From NCBI GenBank assembly GCA_964525815.1, contig CAZGJQ010000001.1, positions 1 to 63,537 of the forward strand: DNA of 63,537 bases. Reading direction: 5' to 3'. This document shows, piece after piece, positions 6,698-46,737 of this stretch (its first letter is position 1; every line of letters begins with the position of its first letter). The notes under the pieces were generated by a model, which worked only from the letters and a program-made list of their open reading frames with translations, was not told where the DNA came from and did not search any database. Source of the stretch: an uncultured Oscillospiraceae bacterium (GTDB lineage: Bacteria; Bacillota; Clostridia; Oscillospirales; CAG-382). The translations under genes were made by a program, and so were the position numbers.

Positions 6698-6729
6698 AAG
6701 GGGATACCGTTTGACGGCGGTATCCCCTT
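6698..6729 (+). other. Perfect 12-bp intercistronic hairpin (no T-run)
   Basis: AAGGGGATACCG (6698-6709) pairs with CGGTATCCCCTT (6718-6729) around an 8-nt loop. It sits between Maff2 and the VirB6-like gene, immediately before that gene's SD. Confidence 0.5.
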
Positions 6730-6750
6730 GAAAGGAGGGATACGCCGTCT

Positions 6751-7623: not shown

Positions 7624-7641
7624 GAACGGAGGTGGTTAAAT

Positions 7642-8010
7642 ATGGCTTATGTGCCCGTACCCAAAGACCTGAACGCAGTCAAAACCAAGGTTATGTTCAA
7701 CCTTACCAAACGTCAGCTCGTGTGCTTCGGCTCCGGTGCTGCGGTTGCCATTCCTCTGTTTTTTCTGTGTAAAAGCTGCATGGACACAAGTGTGGCGTCG
7801 CTCATTATGATTCTCGTCCTTTTGCCGTTTATGATGCTGGCCATGTACGAAAAGAACGGACAGCCCCTGGAAAAGATTGTCCGTAACATCGTGCAGGTCT
7901 GCATCCTGCGTCCCAAGCAGCGACCGTACCGGACCAACAACTTCTATACGGTACTGGAACGACAGGAAAAACTCGATAAGGAGGTATATCGTATTGTCCA
8001 CAAAAAGTAA
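7642..8010 (+). CDS. PrgI family T4SS membrane protein
   Basis: The N-terminus MAYVPVPKDLNAVKTKVMFNLTKRQLVCFG followed by TM segments is the PrgI-family signature. Confidence 0.75.
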   Translation: MAYVPVPKDLNAVKTKVMFNLTKRQLVCFGSGAAVAIPLFFLCKSCMDTSVASLIMILVLLPFMMLAMYEKNGQPLEKIVRNIVQVCILRPKQRPYRTNNFYTVLERQEKLDKEVYRIVHKK

Positions 8011-10381
8011 GCTCACGAGGGCGGAAAGAAAAGAAATTGAAGCCGCCATCGCAAGAGCGAAAAACCAGGATAAAAAGAAGAAGTCGGCACAGGACTCCAT
8101 TCCCTTTGAGCGAATGTTTCCCGACGGCATCTGCCGTGTGAAGCCCGGCTACTTCACCAAAACCATCCAGTTCCAGGACATCAACTATCAGCTCAATCAA
8201 AACGAAGATAAAACGGCTATCTTCGAGGGCTGGTGTGATTTCCTCAACTACTTCGACAGCTCTGTAAAATTCCAGTTGTCCTTTATGAATATGGCGGCAA
8301 ACAAGGACACCTATGGGAGCAGCATCGAAATCCCGTCACAGGGCGACGACTTTGACGGTATCCGTGAGGAATACACGGATATGCTGAGAAGCCAGCTTGC
8401 CCGTGGCAACAACGGTCTTATCAAGACCAAGTATCTGACCTTCGGTATTGAAGCGGCAAGCGTTAAGGAGGCAAAGCCGAGGCTTGACCGCATTGAGACC
8501 GACATTCTCAACAACTTTAAGAGGCTCGGCGTGACAGCAGAACCCTTGAACGGCAAACAGCGCCTTGCCTTGATGCACGGGATGTTCCACATGGATGAGC
8601 AGCTTGATTTCAACTTTTCTTGGGACTGGCTGGCACCCACCGGACTTTCCGTAAAGGACTTCATCGCCCCAAGCTCCTTTGAGTTTAGAAACGGCAAGGA
8701 GTTCGGTGTCGGCAAGAAACTGGGTGCCGTGTCCTTCCTGCAAATCCTTGCTCCCGAACTCAATGACCGTATGCTGGCAGACTTCCTTGATATGGAGTCC
8801 AGCTTGATTGTCACCATGCACATTCAGTCGGTTGACCAGGTAAAGGCAATCAAGACGGTTAAGCGTAAAATCACCGATTTGCAGAAAATGACCATTGAGG
8901 AACAGAAAAAGGCAGTTCGCTCCGGTTACGATATGGACATCATTCCAAGCGACCTTGCCACCTACGGCAATGAGGCAAAGAAAATCCTGCAGGATTTGCA
9001 GAGCCGTAACGAGCGTATGTTCCTTCTGACCTTCCTTGTGCTCAACACAGCAAACACCAAACAGCAGCTTGCCAACAACGTATTCCAGGCATCCAGCATT
9101 GCCCAGAAATACAACTGCCAGCTCACAAGACTCGACTTTCAGCAGGAAGAAGGGCTGATGTCCTCTCTGCCGTTGGGACTCAACCAAATCGAAATTCAGC
9201 GAGGCTTGACCACATCAAGCGTCGCTATTTTTGTACCCTTTACCACGCAGGAGTTGTTCCAGACCGGCGACGAAGCGCTGTACTGCGGCATCAACGCTCT
9301 TTCCAACAACCTCATTATGGTAGACCGAAAGAAGCTGAAGAACCCTAACGGCTTGATTCTTGGCACACCGGGCAGTGGTAAGTCCTTCTCGGCAAAGCGT
9401 GAGATTGCCAATGTGTTTCTCGTAACCGATGATGATATTATCATCTGCGACCCCGAAGCCGAGTACGGTCCCCTGGTGGAGCGTCTGCACGGACAGGTTA
9501 TCCGCATTTCTCCGACCTCGCCTCACTATATCAATCCCATGGATTTGAACCTCAACTATTCGGACGACGAAAATCCGTTGTCGCTGAAATCTGACTTTAT
9601 CCTCTCTCTGTGCGAGTTGATTGTCGGCGGCAAGGAGGGCTTGCAGCCTGTCGAAAAGACGGTCATCGACCGTTGTGTGCGATTGGTGTACCGGGACTAT
9701 CTGGCTGACCCCGTTCCCGAAAAGATGCCCATTCTGGAGGACTTGTACAACGAGCTTTTGAAACAGGAGGAAAAAGAAGCCCACTATATCGCAACCGCTT
9801 TGGAAATCTATGTTTCCGGCTCCCTCAATGTGTTCAACCACCGTACCAACGTGGATATTCACAGCCGTATCGTGTCCTACGACATCAAGGAGCTGGGAAA
9901 ACAGCTCAAGAAAATCGGTATGTTGATTGTCCAGGACCAGGTGTGGAACAGGGTGACGGTCAACCGTGAGGCACGGAAATCCACCCGCTACTATATCGAC
10001 GAAATGCACCTGCTTTTGAAGGAGGAGCAGACAGCAGCATACAGCGTCGAGATTTGGAAGCGATTCCGTAAATGGGGTGGCATCCCCACGGGTATCACGC
10101 AGAATGTCAAAGACCTGTTATCCAGCCGTGAGGTTGAGAACATCTTCGAGAACTCTGACTATATCTATATGCTGAACCAGGCATCCGGCGACCGTCAGAT
10201 TCTTGCCAAGCATCTGAATATATCGCCTCACCAGCTCTCGTATGTCACCCACAGCGGTGAAGGCGAAGGGCTGCTTTTTTATGGCTCCGTTATCCTGCCT
10301 TTCGTTGACCGATTCCCGAAGGATACCGAACTGTACCGTATCATGACCACCAAGCCGCAGGAACAGACGGCTAAGAATTAA
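7994..10381 (+). CDS. virB4: VirB4-like conjugal transfer ATPase
   Basis: The ORF-track frame 7877.. was trimmed to TTG 7994, 10 nt after AAGGAGG (7978-7983). It has Walker A GTPGSGKS, Walker B YYIDEMH and the typical VirB4 length. Confidence 0.85.
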   Translation: MSTKSKLTRAERKEIEAAIARAKNQDKKKKSAQDSIPFERMFPDGICRVKPGYFTKTIQFQDINYQLNQNEDKTAIFEGWCDFLNYFDSSVKFQLSFMNMAANKDTYGSSIEIPSQGDDFDGIREEYTDMLRSQLARGNNGLIKTKYLTFGIEAASVKEAKPRLDRIETDILNNFKRLGVTAEPLNGKQRLALMHGMFHMDEQLDFNFSWDWLAPTGLSVKDFIAPSSFEFRNGKEFGVGKKLGAVSFLQILAPELNDRMLADFLDMESSLIVTMHIQSVDQVKAIKTVKRKITDLQKMTIEEQKKAVRSGYDMDIIPSDLATYGNEAKKILQDLQSRNERMFLLTFLVLNTANTKQQLANNVFQASSIAQKYNCQLTRLDFQQEEGLMSSLPLGLNQIEIQRGLTTSSVAIFVPFTTQELFQTGDEALYCGINALSNNLIMVDRKKLKNPNGLILGTPGSGKSFSAKREIANVFLVTDDDIIICDPEAEYGPLVERLHGQVIRISPTSPHYINPMDLNLNYSDDENPLSLKSDFILSLCELIVGGKEGLQPVEKTVIDRCVRLVYRDYLADPVPEKMPILEDLYNELLKQEEKEAHYIATALEIYVSGSLNVFNHRTNVDIHSRIVSYDIKELGKQLKKIGMLIVQDQVWNRVTVNREARKSTRYYIDEMHLLLKEEQTAAYSVEIWKRFRKWGGIPTGITQNVKDLLSSREVENIFENSDYIYMLNQASGDRQILAKHLNISPHQLSYVTHSGEGEGLLFYGSVILPFVDRFPKDTELYRIMTTKPQEQTAKN

Positions 10382-17309: not shown

Positions 17310-19622
17310 ATGGCTGAGAATGAAAAGCAGACCAACAAGGAAAGACTGAAAGACATTACCGACAGCATAGAAAGAGGTATCGAAGAACTCTTTCAATCCG
17401 ACAAGTACGCTGAATATCTCCGCACGATGAGCCGTTTTCACAAGTACAGCGTGAACAACACAATGCTCATCTATATGCAGAGGCCCGACGCCACTTTGGT
17501 GGCAGGCTTCAACAAGTGGAGAGACCAATTCGAGCGTAACGTGATGAAGGGCGAAAAAGGCATTAAAATCATCGCCCCCACGCCCTACAAAAAGAAGATT
17601 GAGCAAGAAAAGCGTGACCCCGACACCAACCTGCCTATGCTGGATGCGGACGGCAAGGTTATTGTCGAGGAAAAGGAAATCAAAATCCCGATGTTCAAGC
17701 CCGTAACGGTGTTTGATGTGTCGCAGACAGACGGAAAACCCCTGCCGCAGCTCGCCTCTGACCTCCAGGGCAATGTGCAGAACTACGAGGTCTTTATGGA
17801 AGCCTTGCGGCGTTCCTCTCCCGTACCGATTGACTTCAAGCCGATTGCGGATAACGCAGACGGCTATTTTTCCCTGGATAATCAGCGAATTACCATCCGT
17901 GAGGGTATGAGCGAAGTGCAAACGGTCTCTGCCGTCGTCCACGAAATCGCACACTCCAAGCTCCACAATCAGAAGAAAATCGAAGAACCGAAAGATGCCG
18001 AAAAGTATCAAGAGGTCGAGATTTTCGATGTACCCGGTCTGTTCTCCAACGGTCGCATTGACCCTGCCACCATTCCCGAAGGAATGTATGTCTATGACCT
18101 GCGTGGCTCTGACGATGACCCAGGACAGCCTATCACGGTGGAAAACCACGTTACTGTCAATCATGCCGGTTCGGTTATTACAGCCAAGCCCCTTGACCTT
18201 GGCGAAAATGGACGGCTGACCTTTACTGAGGAGGAAGGTCTGAACTTTGTCGGCGGTGAGATTTCCGCTTACCGTTTCTTAAATGAACAGAGAAAAGACC
18301 GCAACACCGAGGAGGTCGAAGCCGAAAGCATTTCTTTTGCCGTTTGTGCCTATTATGGTATTGCTACAGGTGAAAACAGCTTCGGCTATATCGCCACCTG
18401 GTCGAAGGACAAGGAACTGAAAGAGCTTCGTGCGAGCCTTGAGACCATCAACAAAACATCCTCCGAGCTGATTACCGACATCGACCGTCACTACGCCGAT
18501 ATTATGAAAGAGCGTGAGGCTGAAATGGCGATTGAAACCGAAGAAAAGCCTTTGGCAGAAATGAACATTCTGGAAATGGTAGACCATTTCATGGAGCAAG
18601 GAATGACCGAGGAACAGGCAAACGACCTTGCTCACGCAGAATGGCAGGCAAGAAAAATCAACGCCGAACCTGCGATGACGGAAGCGGTTGATGAAAGCAC
18701 GGCTTCCGGCGAGAGTACAGCGGCAATCGACCCGCCTATTGAGGAGGAACCTCCTACCCAAGCTCCCGATAACGGATATATGCCCGACCCGTCTATGTCT
18801 ATCGAGGCGATGAACGCTTACGGCTATATGGATTCGGATATGCTTCCTCTTTCCAAGGAACGAGCATTGGAGCTGTTTGAGCGTGATGTTCCCATTTATA
18901 TGCTCTACGAGGGCAACACCGAAGCGATGGCGTTCGACACCGAGGACATTGTTCTGTTCTCCGGTTGCTTTGGTATCACCCGTGAGGATTGGGATGCCAT
19001 CAAAAACGAAGTGCCCCCTATGGATGCCGATATTATCCGCCAGAAGCGTGAGCAGGCGTTCCTTGAAAGTCCCGGTGACACCTACGCTATCTATCAGTTG
19101 AAGCGTGACGATGCCACCACGGATATTCGCTTTATGAACTCCGACTATCTGAAATCCAAGGGCATTGAACCGCAGTACGAAAATTATGAGCTTATCTATA
19201 CCGGAGCACTCACCAAGGACGGCAGCCAGATGGATAAGTTAGAGGATTTGTACCGTGTTTTCAACATCGAGCACCCCCAGGACTTCACAGGACACAGCCT
19301 TTCTATCAGCGACATCGTGGCGTTAAAGCAGGCAGGTGTGGTATCCTATCACTACGTTGACAGCGTTGGATATAAGGAGCTGCACAACTTCCACAATACC
19401 GACAATTATCTGAAAAACGCAGAAATGCAGTTGGAAGATGACTACGGTATGATTGATGGTGTTATCAATAACGCACCGAAAGAGCCGGTCAAAGCTCCTG
19501 TTCCCAAGAAGGAAGAAACCAAATCAAAGAAACCGTCCGTTCTCGCAAAGCTCCGTCAGTACCAAACCGAGGACAGACAGCAAACTACACAGCACAGAAG
19601 TGCGGAAAGGGATTTAATATGA
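17310..19622 (+). CDS. ArdC-like ssDNA-binding/metalloprotease protein with YodL-like and DUF4316-like C-terminal regions
   Basis: ArdC-N/DUF1738-like segment (YSVNNTMLIYMQRPDATLVAGFNKWRDQFERNVMKGEKGIKI), an HExxH motif (VHEIAHSKLH), a YodL-like segment (YAIYQLKRDD...GHSLSISDIV) and NAEMQLEDDYGMIDGVINN. Confidence 0.75.
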   Translation: MAENEKQTNKERLKDITDSIERGIEELFQSDKYAEYLRTMSRFHKYSVNNTMLIYMQRPDATLVAGFNKWRDQFERNVMKGEKGIKIIAPTPYKKKIEQEKRDPDTNLPMLDADGKVIVEEKEIKIPMFKPVTVFDVSQTDGKPLPQLASDLQGNVQNYEVFMEALRRSSPVPIDFKPIADNADGYFSLDNQRITIREGMSEVQTVSAVVHEIAHSKLHNQKKIEEPKDAEKYQEVEIFDVPGLFSNGRIDPATIPEGMYVYDLRGSDDDPGQPITVENHVTVNHAGSVITAKPLDLGENGRLTFTEEEGLNFVGGEISAYRFLNEQRKDRNTEEVEAESISFAVCAYYGIATGENSFGYIATWSKDKELKELRASLETINKTSSELITDIDRHYADIMKEREAEMAIETEEKPLAEMNILEMVDHFMEQGMTEEQANDLAHAEWQARKINAEPAMTEAVDESTASGESTAAIDPPIEEEPPTQAPDNGYMPDPSMSIEAMNAYGYMDSDMLPLSKERALELFERDVPIYMLYEGNTEAMAFDTEDIVLFSGCFGITREDWDAIKNEVPPMDADIIRQKREQAFLESPGDTYAIYQLKRDDATTDIRFMNSDYLKSKGIEPQYENYELIYTGALTKDGSQMDKLEDLYRVFNIEHPQDFTGHSLSISDIVALKQAGVVSYHYVDSVGYKELHNFHNTDNYLKNAEMQLEDDYGMIDGVINNAPKEPVKAPVPKKEETKSKKPSVLAKLRQYQTEDRQQTTQHRSAERDLI

Positions 19623-19877: not shown

Positions 19878-20906
19878 TTAATCATCTATTTTATCTTTTG
19901 GGTGTGCATGATGATGTTTTTCATCTTCTCCAATATGAGAATGAGGGTGACTGTGTTCAATCATATGGCTGTGGGTAGTGCCATCGTGCGTGTGGGTCAT
20001 AATGTGAGTGTGGGCGTGTGCGTGATAGGTAATCATTGTATCTGCAACAATTACGGCTGAACCCAATAACATCAGAACCAACGCAATAAAGTAATTTTGT
20101 GTGAGTGTTTCTTTCAAGAATACAAAAGACAAGAAAGCACCCACAAACGGTGCAATCGCATAGTATGCACTCGTTTTTGCTGCACCCAATATGCTTTGAG
20201 CTTTAATGTAATAGAAAATGCTCAAACCATAAGCCACAAAACCGAGACTTAGGGCAAGCAGCACAAGTAGCATATCGGGTAGTTGTTCTCCTATTACAAG
20301 AGCAATTATCAGCGAGCCAAGACCAGAAAAGATGCCTTTAAGGGTAACAATCTGATAGGGGCTTTTGTCTGAAATTTTACGGGTACAGTTGTTTTCAAGG
20401 CCCCAACACAAGGCGGCTAATAACACAAATCCCGAACCCCACGAAAATTGCAGGCTCGACATATCCTCGAAGCTGAGAATTGCACTTGATAAGGAAATTA
20501 GCACTATCGCAACCCAAAGACGCTTTGAAATTAGTTCCTTGAAAACCAATAGTGCAATCAGCGAGGTAGCAACGATTTCAAAATTGTTCAGTAGCGAAGC
20601 ATTGGATGATGTGGTATGCAGCAAGCCGAACATCAGAAAAATCGGTGCCAATATATCTAAGAAAATCATTCCGAGAGTATAGGGCAAATCACTTTTTGTT
20701 AAAAGCTTCGCCTTGTCAATTTTCTTGCGCTTGAAAAAGAACAATATGCCAACGCCAATTCCTGCACCAAGATACAGAAACGCTGCCATCATAGTAGGCT
20801 CGACATTCTTTAGCAACACCTTGGATGCAGGCATATTAAGAGCATAAAAAACGGCGGCAAGAATGGCAAATACCGTTGCTTTTATTTTGCTATTAGATTT
20901 CTTCAT
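19878..20906 (-). CDS. DMT/EamA family transporter with a His-rich C-terminal tail (cargo)
   Basis: About ten TM segments in two EamA-like halves. The C-terminus is TYHAHAHTHIMTHTHDGTTHSHMIEHSHPHSHIGEDEKHHHAHPKD. Confidence 0.8.
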   Translation of the reverse strand: MKKSNSKIKATVFAILAAVFYALNMPASKVLLKNVEPTMMAAFLYLGAGIGVGILFFFKRKKIDKAKLLTKSDLPYTLGMIFLDILAPIFLMFGLLHTTSSNASLLNNFEIVATSLIALLVFKELISKRLWVAIVLISLSSAILSFEDMSSLQFSWGSGFVLLAALCWGLENNCTRKISDKSPYQIVTLKGIFSGLGSLIIALVIGEQLPDMLLVLLALSLGFVAYGLSIFYYIKAQSILGAAKTSAYYAIAPFVGAFLSFVFLKETLTQNYFIALVLMLLGSAVIVADTMITYHAHAHTHIMTHTHDGTTHSHMIEHSHPHSHIGEDEKHHHAHPKDKIDD

Positions 20907-21250: not shown

Positions 21251-21328
21251 TAGGCTCAAGAAAGTTTACAATTACATAGCCGACAGGACACCAACACACG
21301 GCTAACATTTCAGAAGGAGGTTTTTACA

Positions 21329-24300
21329 TTGCCAAGTAAACTGGACTTTTACTCACAAATGGCAGACCGAACAGCAAGGCAGGTCACAGGCAGTTTTGGT
21401 GAGTGGACGGCGTTCCTTGAAACAATGGGACGACTGTATAAGTACCCGTTCCACGAGCAGTTGATGATTTTCGCCCAAAAGCCAAACGCAACTGCCTGTG
21501 CCGACTATGACCTTTGGAATAAGCAGATGGGCAGATATGTCCGTCGTGGCACCAAGGGCATCGCTTTGATTGACACATCCGGCGACAATCCAAGGCTCAA
21601 ATATGTGTTTGATGTTTCCGATACAGGCGGCAGAGAGAACTCTCGCCGCCTTAATCTTTGGGAGTACAAGGACGAGCATCAAGACACTGTTACCGCAGCT
21701 CTGGAAAATCGCTTTGGCGTTTCCGGTGAGAAAGGTCTTGCCGACCAACTGGAGAAAATTGCATCCAAGCTCGTGACCGAATACTGGAACGACAACCGCC
21801 GTGACATCCTCGGCATCCTTGCCGATTCCTTCCTTGAGGAGTATGATGATTACAACGTAGAGGTTGCGTTCCGCAATGCCGCTACCGTGAGCACCACCTA
21901 CACGCTCATGTCTCGCTGTGGCCTGAACCCCGGCGATTACTTTGAGCACGAGGACTTTTTGAGCGTATTCGACTTTAACACCCGTGACACAATCGCTGCC
22001 CTCGGCACGGTTATCAGCAATACCTCCGAGCAGGTTTTAAGGCAGATTGCGGTCACAGTAAAAAATCACGAGCGAGAAGCAAGTCTGCAGCAGCAGGCGG
22101 AAAGGACACAGAGTTATGGAGAACACATTGAACTACACGAAGAACGGGGATTACTTTATCCCGAATCTGACGCTGACCGAGACCGAGACGAAGCCCCTGG
22201 GCAAGTATGGCAGGATGCGGAAGCAGTACCTGCAGGAGCACAGACCGGTGCTGTGGAACCAGATGATTCTGTCGGAGAGCCTGTACCCGCATCTGAGGGA
22301 AATCGACGAGACGGCGAACCGCAGAATGGAACAGATGATGCCCGAACTGATGAAAGCGAACGGCGTGACGGAGGAACTGAAAGCCAGCGACCCGATGAAG
22401 TGGGTGGGCTTGATGAACAACCTCAAAGCGCAAGCCGAAGAAACAATTCTCGCAGAACTGGTTCTGGCATAACCGGACAGCTAACCCTCTTTGACGTAGG
22501 GTTATTCCCAAGTGAACAAGAACAAATATCCTTCATTGATGAAGCGGAGAGTGTAAAACCTGCACCCTTCGCTTTTTCTTTTGCCCAGGAGGATATTGAC
22601 GATGTGCTTCGCCTTGCAAGCAACTCAGAGCACACACGAATGAATGTAGCTGCGGCTTTCCAAAAGCAAAAGCCGATGGATGAAATCGTGTCTCTGCTCC
22701 AAAAGGAATATCACGGCGGCGCAGGATTAAAGTCCGAGCGTGGTGAGTTCTCGGTATGGTATGCCGAGGACGGTATTCACCTTGCCAAAGGCAGAACGGC
22801 GAGATATTCCAAGACCGCACAGGTCATTTCTTGGGAGGATGCCGCCGAGCGTATCGGTCAGCTTATGGATGAGGGCAAGTACGCCACCAATGTGGAGCTT
22901 GCCGAAGCGGAGCTTCACGAGCGTACCGAGCTTTCTCATAAGCTGTGGTATATCCGTGGGGATTTGAGCGATGAAGCCAGGGAGCAGAATGTTCTCGGCA
23001 CTTTGCAGGACTACCGCAGAGGCGGTTTTCCCGATGCGACCGCAAGGCTCGCAGAGGATTTGAAAGACCCCACTTTCCGTGAAATGCTGTCTGCCGATTA
23101 CGCCGCTTTTATGGATGCCTACAAAGCAGAACGTGATGTAATGCGTTTCCACTACCACAAGCCCGTTGAGATTTGGAACGCTCTGCAAGACCTTGACTTG
23201 CCAAGGCGTGAATGTACCTCCGATATGGCAGAAGTGCCGAAGGTGGGAATGTTCATCACCGAGGACGAGATTGATGCGACCTTGAACCGAGGCAGTAATG
23301 TCAAGGGCGGCAAGGGTCGTATTTACGGTTATCTTACCGGCTCTCACAACTCTAAGGAAAAGGCAGACTTCCTAAAGAACGAGTACGGTATCGGCGGCAG
23401 CTCTCACTCTGTATCCGGTCGTGGATGGATTGACAGCTCCGGCAAGGGCATCCGCTTGCAGAAGCCCGATTGTGCCGATGTGGAGCTGAACTGGAACAAG
23501 GTTCTCACACGCTTTGAAAACCTTATCCGAAACGGCAGATATTTCACCCCCGAACAGAAAGCCAAGTATGAGGAAATGCAGACCCGTGAGGGACAATTCC
23601 GCAAGCTGATGGACGCATATAACGACATCAAGCACGAACATCCCGATGATATTGTGCTGTTCCAAGTCGGAGATTTCTTTGAAACGTACGGCGAGGATGC
23701 CAAAACCGCTGCAAAGCTGCTTGACCTCAATCTGACCACACGCCCCGTTGCCGGTGCCGGACGAGTGGAAATGTGCGGTATTCCTGCCCACACTTTGGAG
23801 CAGTCCGTTGAAAAGCTCCGTGCCACCCACGGCGTTACTGTCTCGGAGTTTAACGGCATCGTAAACGAGCATATAAGCCGTTCCTTGCCCGTTCTCCCGG
23901 CGGTTGAGGAATTATCCCAAGAACCTGAAATTGAGCCTGTAAGCGTTACAGAAGCCCCAAATGAGTCCCCACCTGCGACAGTTGAAGCTCCCGTTGTCTC
24001 CCGTGAAATCACGCAAGCTGAAATTGATGAAGCTCTGCAAAGATGGAATGGCGATATAGAAAGCAAGCGTTCCGTGGTTCGCTATATGGCAGACCACGCC
24101 CGTGAGCGTGACACAGCCGCTTGGCTCTCCAAGGAATACGGCGGCGATGTATCGAAGCCCCTGCACATCACCGTGACAGGTACGGACATTGATTATGAAA
24201 TGTCCTGGGCAAAGGTACAGCGCCGAGTGGCACAACTCATCAAGGAGGACAGGTTTTATACCCAAGAGGAATACGACCGTCTGGACGATATTGACCCCGT

Positions 24301-27300
24301 GTATATCCGTGCGGAGCTTGCCCAGCGTGGTATCGTGAACGGCGAATTGGTCGAACCCGAAAAGCTCGACAATGACCCTTTTATTCAGCAGGTAAACGCA
24401 GATGTGAAGTCACTTTCCGAGTCCGTTGAAGCGTGGGAAGCCGAACAGGAAGCGAAACGAAATGAAGCGATTGCAAGGTTGACCGATGAACAGCAGACCT
24501 TTGTGGAAGCTATGAATGTGGCAGGCTATGTGTATCAGCACAACGTTGGATATTCCGGCGAGCCTATCGTTTTCTATGCCAACACGGACAGCTATCCTAT
24601 CAGCTTTGCAAACTGGAACGATGCGTACGACTGGATTGATAATGCCGAGCTGAAGCTGGAACCCGGTCTCCGTGACAAGGTACAAGCGGTTCTTCATCCC
24701 GATGAACCACCTCGTATGACCGATGCGGAGTTTGCAGCCGAACACCTTGTCCCTCGTGAGTCCACCTATGAGATTGACGGTCGCAGATTTATCGTTGACA
24801 GCGTAAATCTTGACTTCGGAAGCGTTAGCCTGCAGGACGTGACCTTCCAGAACCAAACGGGCTTTCCGATTTTCAGAAGTGAATCCATTGAGTTTATGCG
24901 TAGGCTCGTGGAGATCAGCGAAGCACAGTGTAATGCGGAGCTGCCTACCGAGCCGAAACTGGAGTCCGAGACCGTGGCGTTTTACTCTGCGGAGGACAAT
25001 CATCTTCCGTATGATGTGGAAATCCGCACCATCAAGGCGGTCGAACCCGAACCGCCTACCCCTAAACCGGAGCTTCACAACTTCCAAATCACCGATGACC
25101 ACCTGGGCGAAGACGTGGTGACGGCGAACGCAGGCTTTTCGCCGAAAGCAAAGTTCCGTATGAATATGGATGCCATCAATCTTCTGAAAGAATTGGAGTT
25201 TGACGGCAGACAGGCAACACCGGAAGAACAGGTTATTTTGTCGAAATATGTCGGTTGGGGCGGTCTGGCAGATGCCTTTGATGAAACAAAGGACAACTGG
25301 AAGAACGAGTTCGCAGAGCTATACGCAACCCTTTCTCCCGAAGAATACGCCGCAGCACGAAGTTCTACACTGAACGCTCACTATACAAGTCCTACCGTCA
25401 TTAAGGCTATCTATGAAGCCGTTGGCAATATGGGCTTTGAGACCGGCAACATTCTGGAGCCGTCTATGGGCGTCGGCAATTTCTTCGGTTGTCTGCCCGA
25501 AACGATGCAGAACAGTAAGCTCTACGGCGTGGAGCTGGACAGCATCACAGGGCGAATCGCAAAACAGCTTTACCCCAAGGCAGACATCACTATTGCAGGC
25601 TTTGAGACCACCGACAGACGAGACTTCTATGACCTCGCTATCGGCAACGTGCCTTTCGGTCAGTACCAAGTGAACGACCGTGCTTATAACAAGCTCGGCT
25701 TTTCTATCCACGATTACTTTTTTGCCAAGGCTCTCGACCAGGTAAGACCGGGCGGTGTGGTTGCGTTCGTGACCTCCCGATACACCATGGATAAGCAATC
25801 TCCCGAAGTGCGTAAGTATATCGCACAGAGAGCCGAACTGCTCGGTGCTATCCGTCTGCCCAACAATGCTTTCAAGGCAAACGCAGGAACAGAGGTCGTC
25901 TCCGACATCATCTTCCTGCAAAAGCGTGACAGACCGATTGAGATTGAACCCGATTGGGTGCATCTTGGCAAGAACGACGACGGGTTTGCCATCAACAGCT
26001 ATTTCATCGACAACCCCGAAATGGTGCTTGGTCGCCAGACCTCGGAAAGCACACAGTACGGTAAACAGGACTTTACTGTTGAGCCGTATGAGGGCTTGGA
26101 TTTGAGCGTTCAGCTCAAGTACGCTATCCAGAACATCAAGGGCACTTATACCGAAGCGGAGCTTCCCGAACTCGGTGATGGTGAAGCCATTGATACCTCT
26201 ATCCCGGCAGACCCGAACGTAAAGAACTACTCCTATACCGTGGTGGACGGCGATGTGTACTACCGTGAAAACAGCCGAATGGTGAAGCCCGAACTCAACG
26301 CAACGGCAACGGAGCGTGTTAAGGGTATGGTGGAGCTTCGGGACTGCGTTCAAAAGCTCATCGGTCAGCAGATGGACGGTTTCGTTTCGGATGCGACCAT
26401 CCGTGAGACCCAAAGAGAGCTGAACGACCTCTACGACAAATTCACAGCAAAACACGGTCTTATCAACAGCCGTGGCAACGCACTTGCTTTTGCAGACGAC
26501 AGCTCCTATTATCTGCTTTGCTCTCTGGAAGTGCTCGACGAGGACAACAACCTCAAACGCAAGGCGGATATGTTCACCAAGCGTACCATTAAGCCGAGCG
26601 AGGTCGTGACCTCGGTTGACACGGCTGCGGAAGCTCTGGCAGTTTCTATCGCAGAGAAAGCCCGTGTGGATATGGAGTATATGTCCTCTCTGACCGGCAA
26701 GAGCGAAGAAGAACTCGCAAGCGATTTGCGTAGCGTTATCTATATGGATTTCAACCGCAAGCCCGATGGCCCGTACACTTGGCGTACTGCTGATGATTTT
26801 CTCTCCGGTAACGTCCGTGAAAAGCTCGCCTACTATCAGAAAGCTCTTGACCTTCTTCCCGAAGATGCGAACCACCGCAACGAGATTGCCGACAATGTGG
26901 AAGCTCTTAAAATGGCACAGCCCAAAGACCTGGATGCCTCTGAAATCGAAGTACGCCTCGGTGCAACGTGGATTGACAAGTCCTATATTCAGCAGTTTAT
27001 GGTGGAGACCTTTGAACCGCCGTATTACCTGCGCAGGAGCATCGAAGTGAACTACTCGCCTTTCTCGGCAGAATGGAACATTACGGGGAAATCTCAGCCG
27101 TCCTACAGCGACGTAAACGCCTATATGACCTACGGCACGGACAGAGCCAACGCCTACAAGATTTTGGAGGACACTCTGAATCTGCGTGATGTTCGTATCT
27201 ATGACACCGTAACTGACCCCGACGGCAAGGAAAGACGTGTGCTGAACTCCAAGGAAACGACCCTTGCACAGCAGAAGCAGCAGGCAATCAAAGATGCGTT

Positions 27301-30082
27301 CCAGGATTGGATTTGGAGAGACCCGGACAGACGACAGGAGCTTGTCACGAAGTACAACGAGCTTTTCAACTCCAATCGTCCCCGTGAGTACGACGGCTCT
27401 CATATCGTGTTCAGCGGTATGAACCCCGAAATCAAGCTCCGTGAACATCAGCTCAATGCCGTTGCTCACATTCTCTACGGCGGGAACACCTTGCTTGCAC
27501 ACGAAGTTGGCGCAGGCAAGACCTTTGAAATGGTCGCCGCCGCTATGGAAAGTAAACGCCTCGGTCTTTGTCAAAAGCCTTTGTTTGTCGTTCCCAACCA
27601 CTTGACCGAGCAATGGGCAAGTGAGTTCCTCCGTCTTTATCCGTCTGCCAATATTCTTGCCGCAACAAAAAAGGACTTTGAGCCGAGAAACCGCAAAAAG
27701 TTCTGCGGCAGAATTGCTACCGGCGACTACGATGCCATCATCATCGGACACAGCCAGTTTGAGCGTATTCCCGTATCCCAGGAACGACAGGAGCGACTTC
27801 TGCAGGAGCAGATTGCAGAGATTGAGGAGGGCTTGGAGGAACTGAAAGCCAGCCGAGCCGAACGCTTTACCATCAAATCCCTGGAGCGTACCAAAAAGGG
27901 CTTGGAGACGAGACTGCAGAAGCTCCAGGACAGCTCCCGCAAGGATGATGTAATCACCTTTGAACAGCTCGGCGTTGACCGTCTGTATGTGGACGAGGCG
28001 CACAATTACAAGAATTTGTTCCTCTACACGAAGATGCGAAACGTGGCAGGTCTCTCGACCACCGATGCACAGAAGTCCTCTGATATGCTTCTCAAATGCC
28101 GCTATATCGACGAGCTGACCGACAGCCGAGGCGTGATATTCGCAACGGGAACTCCCGTCTCTAACTCCATGACGGAGCTGTACACGATGATGCGATACCT
28201 GCAGCACGACACCATTCGCAACAAGGGATTGGCACACTTCGATTGTTGGGCATCCACTTTTGGAGAGACCACAACCGCCATTGAGCTTGCACCGGAGGGT
28301 ACGGGCTACCGAGCAAGAACACGATTTGCAAAGTTTTTCAATCTGCCCGAACTGATGAACCTGTTCAAAGAAGCGGCAGACATTAAGACAGCCGACCAGC
28401 TCAACCTACCGACCCCGACACCTATCTACCACAACGAAGTGGCACAGCCTACGGAAATCCAAAAGGCTATGGTGCAGGAGTTGTCCGAAAGAGCCGCTGC
28501 GGTTCATTCGGGTAAGGTTGACCCGTCCGTGGACAATATGCTTCGCATTACCTCAGACGGTCGCAAGCTCGGTCTCGACCAACGCATCATCAATCCAAAC
28601 CTTCCCGATGAGCCGACAAGTAAGGTCAATATGTGCGTGGATAACATTCATCGCATTTGGGAGGACGGTCACGCTGACAAGCTGACCCAGCTCGTGTTCT
28701 GTGATTTGAGCACACCGAAAAGCACAGCGACCAAGAGAGCTGCCAAAGCTCCTGCAGGAAATCTCGACAGCCCCGAAATCCGGGCATTGGAGCACCTTGC
28801 AGAAAAGGACGGCGGCACAGAGGAAGAACAGCGCTTCACCGTCTATGATGACATCCGAGACAAATTGGTGGAGCGTGGTATTCCGAGAGAACAGATTGCT
28901 TTCATTCACGAGGCAAATACCGAAGCCCGTAAAAAGGAATTGTTCAGCAAAGTCCGTTCCGGTCAAGTCCGTGTTCTTATGGGTTCCACCTTTAAGATGG
29001 GAGCCGGTATGAACGTCCAGGACAGGCTTATCGCACTCCACGACCTTGATGCACCCTGGAGACCCGGAGACCTTGAACAGCGTTCCGGTCGTATTATTCG
29101 CCAGGGCAATATGAACCCCGAAGTCCACATTTACCGCTATGTGACGGAGGCGACCTTCGATGCGTACCTTTGGCAGACCTTGGAGAACAAGCAGAAGTTT
29201 ATCTCGCAGATTATGACTTCCAAATCTCCCGTGAGAGCCTGCGATGACATTGACGAAACTGCACTTTCCTATGCGGAAATCAAAGCTCTGTGTGCCGGTG
29301 ATGAGCGAATTAAAGAGAAGATGGACCTGGATGTGGATGTTGCTCGTTTGAAGCTGATGAAGGCAAACCACCAAAGTCAGCAGTACCGCTTGGAGGACAA
29401 TCTGCTCCGTTATTTCCCCGAACAGATTGAGCAGAACAAGAAATTCATTGAAGGCTTCAATGCCGATATGAAAACTCTTGCAGAGCATCCTCACCCCGTT
29501 GACTGCTTTGCCGGTATGACAGTTAGGGGCGACGTGTTGACCGATAAGGAAAACGCAGGCGCAGCACTTGTTGATGCTTTCAAAGATGTTAAGGGACTTG
29601 ACCCTGTGCAGATTGGCACTTACCGAGGCTTTACGATGTCGCTCACCTTGGAGGACTTCGGGCGTGATTACGTTCTGACCCTCAAAGGACAGATGACCCA
29701 CCGTGTCACCCTCGGCAAAGACCCTCGTGGTAATTTGACAAGAATCGACAACGCTCTGAATGGTATGGCTGAACGCCTTAACACCGTTCAGGGCAAGCTC
29801 GACAGTCTCTATTCGCAGATGGAGACCGCAAAGCAGGAGCTTGGCAAGCCGTTCCCGCAGGAGGCAGAGCTGAAAGCGAAATCCGCAAGGCTGGCTGAAC
29901 TCAATATCGCTTTGAACATCGACGATAAGACCCCCCTTGAAGCTATGGCAGAGGAAGCTCCATCGAGAGCCGAGATTGCCAAATCCGCAAAACCGTCCGT
30001 CTTGCAAAAGCTCCATTCCTACGATAAGACGAGCAAGGCAGACCCGTTAGAACCGAAAAAATCCAAAGAGGAGGTACGCTGA
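21329..30082 (+). CDS. Giant polyvalent protein: ArdC-N-like ssDNA-binding, MutS-I-like, N6-adenine DNA methyltransferase and SNF2 helicase domains
   Basis: A single 2917-codon open frame with a TTG start 8 nt after GAAGGAGG. The domains are listed as separate features below. Confidence 0.85.
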   Translation: MPSKLDFYSQMADRTARQVTGSFGEWTAFLETMGRLYKYPFHEQLMIFAQKPNATACADYDLWNKQMGRYVRRGTKGIALIDTSGDNPRLKYVFDVSDTGGRENSRRLNLWEYKDEHQDTVTAALENRFGVSGEKGLADQLEKIASKLVTEYWNDNRRDILGILADSFLEEYDDYNVEVAFRNAATVSTTYTLMSRCGLNPGDYFEHEDFLSVFDFNTRDTIAALGTVISNTSEQVLRQIAVTVKNHEREASLQQQAERTQSYGEHIELHEERGLLYPESDADRDRDEAPGQVWQDAEAVPAGAQTGAVEPDDSVGEPVPASEGNRRDGEPQNGTDDARTDESERRDGGTESQRPDEVGGLDEQPQSASRRNNSRRTGSGITGQLTLFDVGLFPSEQEQISFIDEAESVKPAPFAFSFAQEDIDDVLRLASNSEHTRMNVAAAFQKQKPMDEIVSLLQKEYHGGAGLKSERGEFSVWYAEDGIHLAKGRTARYSKTAQVISWEDAAERIGQLMDEGKYATNVELAEAELHERTELSHKLWYIRGDLSDEAREQNVLGTLQDYRRGGFPDATARLAEDLKDPTFREMLSADYAAFMDAYKAERDVMRFHYHKPVEIWNALQDLDLPRRECTSDMAEVPKVGMFITEDEIDATLNRGSNVKGGKGRIYGYLTGSHNSKEKADFLKNEYGIGGSSHSVSGRGWIDSSGKGIRLQKPDCADVELNWNKVLTRFENLIRNGRYFTPEQKAKYEEMQTREGQFRKLMDAYNDIKHEHPDDIVLFQVGDFFETYGEDAKTAAKLLDLNLTTRPVAGAGRVEMCGIPAHTLEQSVEKLRATHGVTVSEFNGIVNEHISRSLPVLPAVEELSQEPEIEPVSVTEAPNESPPATVEAPVVSREITQAEIDEALQRWNGDIESKRSVVRYMADHARERDTAAWLSKEYGGDVSKPLHITVTGTDIDYEMSWAKVQRRVAQLIKEDRFYTQEEYDRLDDIDPVYIRAELAQRGIVNGELVEPEKLDNDPFIQQVNADVKSLSESVEAWEAEQEAKRNEAIARLTDEQQTFVEAMNVAGYVYQHNVGYSGEPIVFYANTDSYPISFANWNDAYDWIDNAELKLEPGLRDKVQAVLHPDEPPRMTDAEFAAEHLVPRESTYEIDGRRFIVDSVNLDFGSVSLQDVTFQNQTGFPIFRSESIEFMRRLVEISEAQCNAELPTEPKLESETVAFYSAEDNHLPYDVEIRTIKAVEPEPPTPKPELHNFQITDDHLGEDVVTANAGFSPKAKFRMNMDAINLLKELEFDGRQATPEEQVILSKYVGWGGLADAFDETKDNWKNEFAELYATLSPEEYAAARSSTLNAHYTSPTVIKAIYEAVGNMGFETGNILEPSMGVGNFFGCLPETMQNSKLYGVELDSITGRIAKQLYPKADITIAGFETTDRRDFYDLAIGNVPFGQYQVNDRAYNKLGFSIHDYFFAKALDQVRPGGVVAFVTSRYTMDKQSPEVRKYIAQRAELLGAIRLPNNAFKANAGTEVVSDIIFLQKRDRPIEIEPDWVHLGKNDDGFAINSYFIDNPEMVLGRQTSESTQYGKQDFTVEPYEGLDLSVQLKYAIQNIKGTYTEAELPELGDGEAIDTSIPADPNVKNYSYTVVDGDVYYRENSRMVKPELNATATERVKGMVELRDCVQKLIGQQMDGFVSDATIRETQRELNDLYDKFTAKHGLINSRGNALAFADDSSYYLLCSLEVLDEDNNLKRKADMFTKRTIKPSEVVTSVDTAAEALAVSIAEKARVDMEYMSSLTGKSEEELASDLRSVIYMDFNRKPDGPYTWRTADDFLSGNVREKLAYYQKALDLLPEDANHRNEIADNVEALKMAQPKDLDASEIEVRLGATWIDKSYIQQFMVETFEPPYYLRRSIEVNYSPFSAEWNITGKSQPSYSDVNAYMTYGTDRANAYKILEDTLNLRDVRIYDTVTDPDGKERRVLNSKETTLAQQKQQAIKDAFQDWIWRDPDRRQELVTKYNELFNSNRPREYDGSHIVFSGMNPEIKLREHQLNAVAHILYGGNTLLAHEVGAGKTFEMVAAAMESKRLGLCQKPLFVVPNHLTEQWASEFLRLYPSANILAATKKDFEPRNRKKFCGRIATGDYDAIIIGHSQFERIPVSQERQERLLQEQIAEIEEGLEELKASRAERFTIKSLERTKKGLETRLQKLQDSSRKDDVITFEQLGVDRLYVDEAHNYKNLFLYTKMRNVAGLSTTDAQKSSDMLLKCRYIDELTDSRGVIFATGTPVSNSMTELYTMMRYLQHDTIRNKGLAHFDCWASTFGETTTAIELAPEGTGYRARTRFAKFFNLPELMNLFKEAADIKTADQLNLPTPTPIYHNEVAQPTEIQKAMVQELSERAAAVHSGKVDPSVDNMLRITSDGRKLGLDQRIINPNLPDEPTSKVNMCVDNIHRIWEDGHADKLTQLVFCDLSTPKSTATKRAAKAPAGNLDSPEIRALEHLAEKDGGTEEEQRFTVYDDIRDKLVERGIPREQIAFIHEANTEARKKELFSKVRSGQVRVLMGSTFKMGAGMNVQDRLIALHDLDAPWRPGDLEQRSGRIIRQGNMNPEVHIYRYVTEATFDAYLWQTLENKQKFISQIMTSKSPVRACDDIDETALSYAEIKALCAGDERIKEKMDLDVDVARLKLMKANHQSQQYRLEDNLLRYFPEQIEQNKKFIEGFNADMKTLAEHPHPVDCFAGMTVRGDVLTDKENAGAALVDAFKDVKGLDPVQIGTYRGFTMSLTLEDFGRDYVLTLKGQMTHRVTLGKDPRGNLTRIDNALNGMAERLNTVQGKLDSLYSQMETAKQELGKPFPQEAELKAKSARLAELNIALNIDDKTPLEAMAEEAPSRAEIAKSAKPSVLQKLHSYDKTSKADPLEPKKSKEEVR
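21440..21620 (+). other. ArdC-N-like ssDNA-binding domain of the polyvalent protein
   Basis: YPFHEQLMIFAQKPNATACADYDLWNKQMGRYVRRGTKGIALI parallels the ArdC-N motif of the protein encoded at 17310. Confidence 0.5.
22116..22472 (+). CDS. tnpV: TnpV-family ORF nested out of frame inside the polyvalent gene
   Basis: The 118-aa ORF (MENTLNYTKNGDYFIPNLTLTETETKPLGKYGRMRKQYLQEHRPVLWNQM...GVTEELKASDPMKWVGLMNNLKAQAEE) matches the TnpV family of Tn4451-type elements along its whole length as I recall it. AAAGGA lies 9 nt upstream of the ATG, and third codon positions are strongly G/C-biased. Confidence 0.6.
   Translation: MENTLNYTKNGDYFIPNLTLTETETKPLGKYGRMRKQYLQEHRPVLWNQMILSESLYPHLREIDETANRRMEQMMPELMKANGVTEELKASDPMKWVGLMNNLKAQAEETILAELVLA
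23645..23842 (+). other. MutS domain I-like module of the polyvalent protein
   Basis: DDIVLFQVGDFFETYGEDAKTAAKLLDLNLTTR...VEMCGIPAHTLEQSVEKLRATHGVTV resembles the MutS N-terminal mismatch-binding domain. Confidence 0.6.
25370..25935 (+). other. N6-adenine DNA methyltransferase domain of the polyvalent protein
   Basis: AdoMet motif ILEPSMGVGNFFG and catalytic motif GNVPFG (25643-25660). Confidence 0.75.
27440..29110 (+). other. SNF2-family helicase domain of the polyvalent protein
   Basis: Motif I LAHEVGAGKTFEM, motif II YVDEAHNYKN and the helicase-C motif LEQRSGRIIRQGN. Confidence 0.8.
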
Positions 30083-33749: not shown

Positions 33750-35948
33750 CTATTCGATAGTTCTGATATAGTTCTTCAGTTTTACAATTCTGTCCTCCGT
33801 GTCAATACCATCGGGGTTTTGTGAAATAGCGAGTGTCTCGACAACGCTATCATCGTCATTGTTATAAACCACATAAGAATCGTTTTCGCATGAGATATAG
33901 GTATGAGCATAAATCAAATATTGTCCCATATCGTCTCTGGACAAATGAACATCGTCGGCTTCTTTTAAGTAAGGCATATATGTATTCTGTGACCATGCGG
34001 ATTTTGTCTGCATAATGGAGAATAAGTACGGCTTAGTATCAGCTTCATTATTGCTTAACTTGCCGAAGCTACCTGGACGAAAAACAGAATACTTTACATA
34101 GTAATAATTCCATGGATAAATCCCATCGTTCTCACACTTCGTAATAAATGCTGAGGAGATATTATCAAGTACATCATCATTGAATGTCTCATTAGTATCC
34201 AACAAAGAAATTAAAATTGTCTTTGTATTGTCAAATCCGCTATTGGCGCTTCTGTGAAAAAGCTCATTCCACGCCAACTGCAGCCGCTTAGATGCATACT
34301 GATAACGCCATTTATTTCTTTCTTGTTGCCCATAATTTCCGGTAGCCATTAATGCACAGTCAATCTTATCCCAAGAACAGGTAAAGAGAGATGTGAAGCG
34401 AGGGCCATAAGAAAGGTTTTCAAGTCCGATAATTCCAATTTGTCCATATAGCATTTCATTGTCTTCAAGTGCAAAGACTGCTTCTGCAAGGTCTGGATGT
34501 TCTTCCAAAAATTCGAGCTTCTCTTTTTCCTCTTTCAACTGATTTACATTGAAGTTGTTTTCAATGCTGTCATCAATCAAGCCAGTAAGAATAACTGCAT
34601 CGACCGCTTGAAGAATAGCGGGGATTCTATTTCTATCAAGTCTGTCGCTGACCTCATCTTCAGAATTTTGAATCAAGTTATTTACTATTCTAATTCTTCG
34701 GACAAAATCATCCTTTGATACTTCCTCCTGATGTTTCAGATATACCGTGATAGCATAAAGCAACACAATTCGGTTTAATGGGAATTGACGGATTCTGCCG
34801 GATTTATCCGAGTAGGAGTGGATGCAATCCTCAAAAATATCAATCTTGTTTCTGGAATCAACAACGATTTTTCCTGTTTCATGGGTATGGCTCATAAAGG
34901 ATGTTAGAAACTCCGTAGGATTACTATATCCATCAATAAAGCACCAACAATTAAAGAATGCTTCAAGCGTTGCGATATTGTTCAGGGTGTTTTCACCCTG
35001 TGCAGAAAAATACAAGTGAAGCAAATCGAAAACATCATTGCTGTAGCTCTGAGGTGACTCACCGTTCCGATAACAAATCATATCGCAAATGAATTTGAAA
35101 TAACGCAAAAACTTATCGTCAATGATATTGTCATCTACATCGTCATCACTTCCGTTACGATACTTCCAAAGAAGGTCTGTCCATGTCTTATCAATACTTG
35201 CAAAGATTCTGTCAGCGTTTTTTTCTCCGGTCTCTCCGTCAAGTATTCTGATTTCACGCTCCAACTCTGCTTTGAAGTGTTCAAAGAGAGTCAATGGCTT
35301 ACCACGAGAGTTCATCTTAATGTAAAGCTCATCGGTGAGTCCCATATCTTTTATGGGCAGGAAGTAAAAAGTAATAGCTTGATTCTCTAAACGCTCCCAA
35401 ATGTTTGGAACATCCTTAAAGCGTTCATTAATTGCATCCAGCATAACTAACATTGAGCTGATAGTCGGGTCTTTTTTCCAATCCAGTGGGAACCATGCTT
35501 GATTGATAATTTCCGAAGAAAGGTTGCCCTCAAATGATGGAACAAAGTCAACTAACTCTGTGCAAAAATATCTTGCACTATATCTTGTTTCATAGCTGAA
35601 TCCTTTAAGGAACTCGTATTTTTCTGCAGAAATCTTTTCTTTCTTTGCGGCGTACCAATGCAACAAGAATAGCGTGGTTAAACGCTGCTGGCCGTCCAAG
35701 GGAGTCATCGTGCCTTTATCATCGATGTCACCGTACACAAAGTCCAAGGTGATGGAATCGCCGGCAATGGCATTATAGAGAGAATCCAGAAAACGAACTC
35801 TTATTCTATTCACATCATCGTCCACACGCCCTTGAGCATAGTCACGCTGAATGAGTGGAATAGCAATTTTCTTAAGCTGAACAGGTTCTTCACCGTCCAT
35901 AAACGCAGTTTCAAATATATCAATAAATGAGCGGAGTGTTGCACCCAT
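33750..35948 (-). CDS. DUF262 (ParB-like nuclease superfamily) protein with a long uncharacterised C-terminal region
   Basis: N-terminal IPLIQRDYAQGR and DGQQRLTTLFLLHWY. No DUF1524/His-Me motif was seen in the C-terminal half. It has a TAATG overlap with the upstream gene. Confidence 0.75.
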   Translation of the reverse strand: MGATLRSFIDIFETAFMDGEEPVQLKKIAIPLIQRDYAQGRVDDDVNRIRVRFLDSLYNAIAGDSITLDFVYGDIDDKGTMTPLDGQQRLTTLFLLHWYAAKKEKISAEKYEFLKGFSYETRYSARYFCTELVDFVPSFEGNLSSEIINQAWFPLDWKKDPTISSMLVMLDAINERFKDVPNIWERLENQAITFYFLPIKDMGLTDELYIKMNSRGKPLTLFEHFKAELEREIRILDGETGEKNADRIFASIDKTWTDLLWKYRNGSDDDVDDNIIDDKFLRYFKFICDMICYRNGESPQSYSNDVFDLLHLYFSAQGENTLNNIATLEAFFNCWCFIDGYSNPTEFLTSFMSHTHETGKIVVDSRNKIDIFEDCIHSYSDKSGRIRQFPLNRIVLLYAITVYLKHQEEVSKDDFVRRIRIVNNLIQNSEDEVSDRLDRNRIPAILQAVDAVILTGLIDDSIENNFNVNQLKEEKEKLEFLEEHPDLAEAVFALEDNEMLYGQIGIIGLENLSYGPRFTSLFTCSWDKIDCALMATGNYGQQERNKWRYQYASKRLQLAWNELFHRSANSGFDNTKTILISLLDTNETFNDDVLDNISSAFITKCENDGIYPWNYYYVKYSVFRPGSFGKLSNNEADTKPYLFSIMQTKSAWSQNTYMPYLKEADDVHLSRDDMGQYLIYAHTYISCENDSYVVYNNDDDSVVETLAISQNPDGIDTEDRIVKLKNYIRTIE

Positions 35949-37660: not shown

Positions 37661-37671
37661 ACTTTCCCGCC

Positions 37672-38079: not shown

Positions 38080-38227
38080 TTTCAACCTCCTTACCTTCCT
38101 CAAAAGTTGTGTCAATGCCTATAAGCTCCTGGACTTATTGACATTCCACATATTCGAGAGCTTTCAGACCAATCATAGAATTTTTCGTAATGATCATCCC
38201 AAGTCACCACCGACCCACGCTTTCTGG

Positions 38228-38887: not shown

Positions 38888-38901
38888 AGTCATTCCTCCC
38901 G

Positions 38902-46733: not shown

Positions 46734-46737
46734 GCGC

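Follow-up and report, generated by a model that had tools for sequence, protein, structure and literature searches.

The window analysed here is the whole 63,537-nt stretch of contig CAZGJQ010000001.1, from an uncultured Oscillospiraceae bacterium. It carries a long gene for a polyvalent protein, referred to below as the giant gene, and inside it, on the same strand and out of frame, a complete tnpV gene (Table 1). At the position of the giant-gene start, homologues in a protein alignment open with MPSKL. A preliminary description, made from the letters alone, had remarked that the 118-aa open reading frame (ORF) at 22116–22472 resembles TnpV end to end, and a search of Pfam bears this out: PF14198 is matched over positions 1–111 of its 111, with 148.8 bits against a cut-off of 27 (E 7.1e-44). 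The same description held that the giant ORF reads through the tnpV DNA uninterrupted with a shift of one nucleotide, and the distance between the two starts (22116 − 21329 = 787 = 3 × 262 + 1) indeed places tnpV in the +1 frame. Over this region the giant protein has the low-complexity stretch that had been noticed, residues 263–382 comprising E16, G15, D14, R13, A10, P9 and S9. Among the 118 sense codons of tnpV, 8 end in T, and the bases that follow them are TA, AT, CT, GG, CT, CT, CT and CT, never AA, AG or GA. The two open antisense frames recorded earlier are present as well. The comparisons described below establish that tnpV in the giant gene is a real, ancient gene within a gene.

Table 1. 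Features of the giant gene and the nested tnpV gene, with ratios of non-synonymous to synonymous substitution rates (dN/dS) by the Nei–Gojobori method (NG86)
Feature	Position	Strand	dN/dS	Remarks
Shine–Dalgarno (SD) site GAAGGAGG	21313..21320	+		8 nt 5' of the giant-gene TTG; read from the sequence
Giant polyvalent gene, 2917 codons	21329..30082	+		TTG start; no internal stop (ORF list)
N-terminal header domain, ~250 aa	21329..22108	+	0.14 (giant frame)	Conserved; nested tnpV always next
Internal SD site GAAAGGA	22100..22106	+		9 nt 5' of the tnpV ATG; giant frame reads invariant Glu-Arg
Giant-frame linker, residues 263–382	22115..22474	+	1.75 (overlap, giant frame)	D/E/R/G/P-rich; tnpV DNA read one base earlier
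tnpV, 118 codons + TAA	22116..22472	+	0.25 (overlap, TnpV frame)	ATG start; nested, +1 frame of the giant gene
Overlap, third frame			1.19	
First post-linker domain (QLTLFD...FPSEQEQI...)	22475..23602	+	0.18 (giant frame)	Giant-frame codon periodicity resumes at the tnpV stop
Antisense ORF, 152 aa	22053..22511	-		ORF list; not conserved
Antisense ORF, 91 aa	22151..22426	-		ORF list; not conserved

Selection on the overlapping frames

Selection was analysed on 40 sequences dereplicated at 95%. In the flanks of the overlap, position 3 of the giant-gene codons is the most variable (0.45–0.65). Over exactly 22109–22474 this order is inverted: the lowest variability (0.07–0.26) is now at giant position 3, equivalent to tnpV position 2, and the highest (0.31–0.45) at giant position 1, equivalent to tnpV position 3, with the normal pattern back at 22475. 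Pairwise amino-acid identity over the overlap is 72.3% for TnpV, against 52.0% for the giant-frame linker and 52.5% for the third frame, which is never translated. The dN/dS ratios in Table 1 point the same way, with the reservation that such ratios are biased by construction in overlapping frames. Further, dS in the TnpV frame is itself lowered (0.77 versus 1.6–2.0 in the flanks), and nucleotide identity is 75% in the overlap versus 69% and 61% in the flanks. The codon-position pattern, the amino-acid identities and the dN/dS ratios show that purifying selection at the amino-acid level acts on the TnpV frame only. The linker peptide is free of constraint at that level and evolves like untranslated sequence.

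In the protein alignment, which includes homologues down to ~50% identity, the D/E/R/G/P linker nevertheless looks conserved, and the preliminary description had named conservation of the linker in the giant frame as the sign that would speak against a nested gene. The conservation is apparent in homologues, but it is no better than that of the untranslated third frame and is therefore a shadow of TnpV, so that the choice of this sign was mis-specified. The earlier suggestion that the segment is genuinely dual-coding is upheld with one reservation. Both frames are maintained, but amino-acid constraint is seen on TnpV only, and the giant frame is constrained just to stay open.

None of the 40 loci has a giant-frame stop across tnpV, although 2.1 stops per locus are expected from synonymous shuffles within the ORF (mean P(0) 0.11) and 5.7 from each locus's flanking codon usage (mean P(0) 0.007). 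For the window alone, flanking codon usage predicts 6.7 stops and none of 2000 draws was stop-free, while shuffling tnpV's own synonymous codons gives 1.35 stops with P(0) = 0.18. A set of 44 distinct diverse sequences, with a locus GC of 24–60%, likewise contains no giant-frame stop versus 2.8 expected. The third frame across tnpV holds 9–18 stops. Free-standing tnpV genes, used as controls, have 1–9 stops in the corresponding frame (mean 4.75 for 16 complete genes) and 18% T-ending codons. The giant frame is thus selected only to stay open, beyond what chance would provide. Openness is achieved by depletion of T-ending codons in tnpV (7.6% versus 21.6% in the flanks of the 40 loci, with a third-position GC content of 0.83 versus 0.63) and by safe placement of those that remain.

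The same avoidance of stops explains why GC and purine skew are locally raised across 22100–22500. The composition of the linker follows from the overlap too, because position 1 of each giant-gene codon is position 3 of a tnpV codon. Where that position is G/C-rich, the linker is rich in D/E/R/G/P/A, and in low-GC plasmids it is rich in K/R/E/S/N, as expected if tnpV third positions dictate its composition. As candidate genes the two antisense ORFs were rejected; they are not conserved and are by-products of codon bias. Of the 40 relatives, 29 have an open in-phase antisense frame, 5 an open second antisense frame and none an open third one.

Conservation of the nested layout

Residues 1–700 of the giant protein, used as a query, retrieved 1788 homologues. 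For a genome survey, one genome per species was scanned, which yielded 80 loci (genome matches in all number at least 574) from hosts including Hungatella, Enterocloster, Oscillibacter, Lawsonibacter, Roseburia and Agathobaculum, with 53–87% identity in the N-terminal part of the giant protein. All 80 loci contain a TnpV ORF, 62–87% identical to TnpV of the window, with the ATG at the homologous site, a length of 116–119 codons, always the +1 frame and a giant frame open throughout. At the more distant of these loci TnpV is better conserved than the protein that hosts it.

Two samples were drawn from IMG/VR, one via TnpV (38 loci) and one via the N-domain alone (61 loci). In the latter, TnpV directly follows the domain in 45 loci, always in the +1 frame, and 44 of these lie within an open giant ORF; counting full-length relatives, 44 of 46 show the nested layout. 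The other N-domain loci are contig ends, fragments and partial ArdC-N-like matches, plus the very distant L188 and L189. The sample drawn via TnpV comprises 15 nested and 23 free-standing genes. Further, five plasmids of 24–60% GC, from C. perfringens, C. botulinum, Virgibacillus, Monoglobus and Cohnella, have the nested layout. On the first three, tblastn matches to TnpV of 27–34% identity lie under annotated SNF2- or helicase-related genes; the nested ORFs are again in the +1 frame, begin 238–266 codons from the giant start with an SD-like site and a start codon, and are bona fide TnpV (E 2e-21 to 5e-24). A search of plasmids with the DNA of the region gave weak tnpV matches only. The common layout is an N-terminal domain, an SD site (GAAAGGAG-like) with an ATG, a +1 TnpV ORF and a stop-free giant frame.

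Pairwise identities of TnpV and of the N-domain are correlated with r = 0.97 over 116 distinct loci that span ~25% to 100% identity, and none of 999 permutations in a Mantel test reached as high a value. TnpV and the N-domain have thus diverged together as a unit, which excludes repeated insertion. This co-divergence indicates that the nested layout was already present in the common ancestor of relatives that today share only ~22–30% identity, in Clostridia and Bacilli, and has since been passed on as one unit.

The near-identical L188 and L189, whose N-domain is ~22% identical, are the only full-length giant relatives without a TnpV hidden Markov model match. At 3602–4054 of L188, and also in L189, a 150-codon ORF occupies the same +1 frame and the same place after the N-domain; no similarity of this ORF to TnpV was detected (hhalign probability 0.3%, no Pfam match). 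Possible readings are a nested gene that was replaced or has diverged extremely, or a chance ORF. Another locus, L137 (874–1638), was considered as a close relative lacking TnpV and rejected as a truncation at a rearrangement breakpoint. Its N-domain (65% identity) ends in ...IKNY/CNPSHKT and a stop at the start of the SD/tnpV region and is followed by unrelated DNA, the breakpoint falling at the junction of domain and linker.

The start of tnpV is conserved along with its frame. In all 40 dereplicated relatives GAAAGGA(G) stands 7–9 nt 5' of the ATG with variable bases on either side, and a GAAAGGAG- or GAAGGAGG-like SD site precedes the ATG in nearly all of the 44 diverse loci. The ribosome-binding site that the preliminary description had thought possible 5' of 22116 was therefore located, at 22100–22106. 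The internal promoter it had also considered did not materialise. A single weak 9/12 match lies at 21819–21847 and better promoter-like sites are found 5' of the giant start; a separate tnpV transcript is therefore not indicated. The conserved SD site and the invariant ATG argue for independent initiation.

Collectively, it is very probable that TnpV is the product of a real protein-coding gene that lies in its entirety, and in the +1 frame, within the giant polyvalent gene, with one mRNA decoded twice. Ribosomes starting from the TTG at 21329 would make the 2917-aa protein, in which the tnpV DNA would supply a biased, probably disordered tether of ~120 residues between the header domain and the remainder. 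Ribosomes starting from the internal SD site and the ATG at 22116 would make the 118-aa TnpV. Embedding guarantees co-transcription and genetic linkage of tnpV with the polyvalent protein, and TnpV may be co-expressed, possibly as a partner, with the giant protein early after transfer.

Several observations weigh against this reading or limit it. We infer independent initiation of TnpV, and the expression of both products, from sequence. Three of the diverse loci (L178, L180 and L182) have no obvious SD site before the chosen ATG. In some relatives (L148, L152, L146 and L081) the giant ORF ends 0.3–1 kb after tnpV or is split, in L081 into 1671 aa and at least 1348 aa; judging by L148, L152 and L081, the full-length fusion is thus not universal downstream. 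The loci are partly derived from metagenome-assembled genomes and are phylogenetically non-independent, so that combined probabilities overstate significance, and the bias of dN/dS in overlapping frames has been mentioned above. Finally, the AlphaFold2 model of TnpV is confident (mean predicted local distance difference test, pLDDT, 86) and consists of a beta-hairpin followed by a helical bundle, but a Foldseek search of PDB and BFVD gave no match with E below 1 and a sequence-profile search of PDB found no solved relative.

The split giant ORFs could be natural split variants or assembly frameshifts, and the same holds for the TnpV ORF of L148 (3797–4258), which is lengthened to 153 codons.

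Origin of the overlap and competing explanations

The fusion across a former tnpV locus that the preliminary description had suggested is conceivable only as an ancient event. As such it is a tentative account of how the overlap arose, compatible with present dual coding. An ancestral operon of an N-domain gene, tnpV and a large helicase/methylase gene would have become one ORF once the stop of the N-domain gene was lost and translation ran on through tnpV, in the −1 frame, as far as the large gene behind it; synonymous changes in tnpV would then have purged the stops. By the usual criteria TnpV is the older frame, since it is folded (pLDDT 86) and strongly constrained and the host frame there is low-complexity and unconstrained; TnpV would therefore predate the reading as a tether, which favours fusion or read-through. 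Free-standing tnpV genes exist, as do free-standing genes of the ArdcN type such as that at 17310–19622 of the window. However, none of more than 180 loci shows the unfused intermediate (N-domain gene, stop, tnpV, stop, large gene). The free-standing tnpV genes examined are consistently preceded by an ORF of 590–790 codons, a serine-recombinase, TnpX-like size, and N-domain remnants were looked for beside them and none found. Further, with ~5 stops in the −1 frame of a typical tnpV, the fusion would have called for several synonymous changes at once.

The fusion is also at odds with a midpoint-rooted neighbour-joining tree of 49 TnpV proteins, in which nested genes occupy the deepest branches and free-standing ones appear in at least four clades among them; the tree is weak, being built from a short protein under biased sampling and bearing no support values. 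It hints that nesting may be ancestral. For the TnpV family as a whole this would mean overprinting in the tether of the giant gene, or a single very early capture, with free-standing tnpV genes as repeated escapes, and we regard this history as unlikely. If it were true, TnpV would be a dedicated partner of the polyvalent protein, for example a chaperone, regulator or co-transferred factor, and embedding would enforce its co-expression and linkage as with Rz/Rz1.

Programmed +1 frameshifting is an improbable alternative to separate initiation. Ribosomes would shift out of the giant frame near the SD-like sequence, as in prfB, where such elements stimulate +1 shifting, and would produce an N-domain–TnpV fusion ending at the tnpV stop beside the full-length protein. 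The conserved internal SD-like element just 5' of tnpV would suit such a mechanism, and in many loci the TnpV frame is open for 18–195 nt 5' of the ATG. Yet all loci examined, the 80 genome loci among them, retain an ATG at the homologous position, though the giant-frame peptide there is unconstrained; the SD-to-ATG spacing of 7–9 nt fits initiation and not the ~3 nt of prfB; and between SD and ATG the bases change freely and include no conserved slippery or hungry codon. A stop interrupts the TnpV frame of L038 only 18 nt 5' of the ATG, and free-standing members of the family start at the same residue.

Even less credence can be given to the idea that tnpV is a fossil, unexpressed and still open and similar only because the DNA is constrained as a linker or as an RNA element. 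TnpV expression being a deduction, and nucleotide identity being higher in the overlap than in its flanks, such a constraint is conceivable. It would, however, have to mimic the codon periodicity of the TnpV frame, in which position 2 is the least and position 3 the most variable; the linker peptide is conserved no better than the untranslated third frame; ATG, stop and SD site are all conserved; and the TnpV frame has a dN/dS of 0.25, compared with 1.75 for the giant frame.

The landing of a tnpV cassette in a tolerant linker, which the preliminary description had listed first, can safely be dismissed as a recent event, and so can an indel in sequencing or assembly that falsely joins separate genes: TnpV is best known from mobile Tn4451-type elements (PMC3158075) and the GC and purine skew is raised at 22100–22500, but stop avoidance accounts for the composition shift, the same frame relationship recurs in more than 120 independent assemblies from many genera with GC from 24 to 60%, the layout is common to relatives down to ~22–30% identity in the N-domain, TnpV co-diverges with the host domain (r = 0.97), and no direct or inverted repeats beyond chance 10–13-mers flank the gene.

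The nested gene among known systems, its element and its annotation

Read as an embedded gene, tnpV joins a known class of out-of-frame embedded genes, exemplified by Rz/Rz1 and by comS in srfAB, as an unusually well supported member. In the Rz/Rz1 spanins of lambda, one gene, complete and equipped with a ribosome-binding site of its own, is contained entirely within the other in the +1 frame, and in related elements the two are embedded or separate. The tnpV gene is likewise complete, has its own ribosome-binding site, lies in the +1 frame and occurs in embedded and separate forms among relatives. However, both Rz/Rz1 frames encode constrained, interacting proteins, whereas the host frame of tnpV is an unconstrained tether. 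The 46-codon comS gene lies out of frame in srfAB of Bacillus subtilis; it is found in a narrow lineage and overlaps an enzymatically functional domain. Like tnpV, it is small, has a start of its own, is out of frame with the giant multidomain gene of a Bacillota organism that contains it, and is transcribed along with that gene. In contrast, tnpV is longer, at 118 codons, is part of a large family in which free-standing genes also occur, extends over Clostridia and Bacilli and overlaps a linker only.

TnpV of Tn4451/Tn4453-type elements is of the same family (PF14198) and length (~115–120 aa) and is also found on mobile elements of Bacillota. There, tnpV is free-standing, directly after the large serine recombinase gene tnpX, and has 1–9 stops in the −1 frame, whereas that of the window is embedded. 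Free-standing tnpV genes also follow serine recombinases on plasmids, for example in Campylobacter and Pusillibacter. The window gene does not share this synteny, which is typical of the family without defining it, as the serine recombinase at 60433–62064 lies 38 kb away. An excision role for TnpV has been postulated from similarity to lambda Xis (PMC3158075). In the present analysis an Xis-like excisionase role was considered and found unsupported, with neither a PDB fold match with E below 1 nor a PDB profile match. TnpV may have a partner or regulatory role.

The giant protein combines several effector domains in one polypeptide encoded on a conjugative element, as polyvalent proteins do. 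The domain order is an ArdC-N-like header, the linker, an uncharacterised domain, MutS-I, an Eco57I-like N6-methyltransferase and an SNF2/ResIII helicase, with Pfam matches to MutS_I (aa 760–839), Eco57I (1425–1507), SNF2/ResIII (2035–2229) and Helicase_C (2517–2593). The domain at 22475..23602 has no Pfam match (E up to 1). The ArdC-N-like character of the header, proposed in the preliminary description, is weakly supported: with E values up to 1 allowed, the header of the window has no Pfam match, ArdcN included, and profile searching of PDB was also empty, but relatives give weak sub-threshold matches to ArdcN (PF08401), one of 21.7 bits against a cut-off of 22.6 (E 2.4e-4) and another with E 0.008. 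A smaller polyvalent protein encoded just upstream (17310–19622; ArdcN-LPD28-YodL-DUF4316) has a true Pfam ArdcN domain and is without a nested tnpV.

In its ArdC-N-type header, MutS-I, methylase–SNF2 helicase dyad and location in a conjugation module, the giant gene resembles the polyvalent proteins surveyed by Iyer et al. (2017, PMC5512222). The survey (PMC5512222) contains no occurrence of TnpV or of overlapping frames; here the inter-domain linker is an out-of-frame gene. Polyvalent proteins have been proposed to be delivered with the DNA via their N-terminal header domain (Iyer et al. 2017, PMC5512222). Literature searches on TnpV, on polyvalent proteins and on genes of conjugative elements that are embedded in or overlap others turned up no description of the nested arrangement.

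The neighbours of the giant gene are a coupling protein, a VirB4-like ATPase, an NlpC/P60 hydrolase, a CD1107-like protein and topoisomerase III, and further a second, ArdcN-LPD28-YodL polyvalent protein, a relaxase and a large serine recombinase. The giant gene thus sits in the conjugation module of an integrative conjugative element. Between the smaller polyvalent gene and the giant gene lies a gene for an EamA-family transporter (19878–20906) on the opposite strand. The coupling-protein gene (2982–6289) appears to be interrupted by a group II intron: an ORF for a group II intron-type reverse transcriptase/HNH protein (2982–4985) lies directly 5' of the ORF at 5129–6289, which matches only the C-terminal part of the type IV secretion system coupling protein (model positions 131–442). 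A defence-type cargo block occupies 33750–52477 on the minus strand. It includes two GmrSD-like endonucleases, a type III-like Res helicase-endonuclease (38902–42057), an AbiJ-like protein (42000–43298), an N6/N4 methylase (43299–45254), a second SNF2 helicase (46738–50004) and a Y-family polymerase (50942–52477).

The overlap has consequences for annotation. When public gene calls were queried with the exact sequence of the window's TnpV, no record came back. Most calls of close TnpVs are on short contigs; on longer ones the calls include spurious antisense ORFs beside TnpV although the giant frame is open, and in public metagenome assemblies the caller has picked antisense ORFs and TnpV over that frame. 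For the plasmids of Monoglobus (NZ_OY725736.1, L096) and Cohnella (NZ_CP051681.1, L097), RefSeq lists the nested 'TnpV protein' and no giant coding sequence, leaving unannotated a surrounding open frame of more than 1670 codons; the Cohnella plasmid carries an antisense 'hypothetical protein' instead. Both conflicts are due to the overlap. Long antisense ORFs also lie opposite the giant gene, on the minus strand of the window at 25319–28237 (972 aa) and 28553–30016 (487 aa), and in L081 at 6354–10019 (1221 aa). Gene callers give either TnpV with spurious antisense ORFs or just one gene of the nested pair, be it TnpV or the giant gene, and many TnpV copies are therefore missing from protein databases.

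In bacteria, long same-strand genes that are fully nested and kept across deep divergence are a rarity, and reported cases are often contested; tnpV provides one of 118 codons with clean comparative evidence. The arrangement occurs in hundreds of conjugative elements of gut Clostridia, as well as in plasmids of Clostridium and Bacillales. In polyvalent anti-restriction proteins of a major class, the conspicuous and seemingly conserved low-complexity linker is thereby seen to be the shadow of another gene. Moreover, the uncharacterised TnpV family is tied to the establishment machinery of conjugative elements, which offers a handle on its function.

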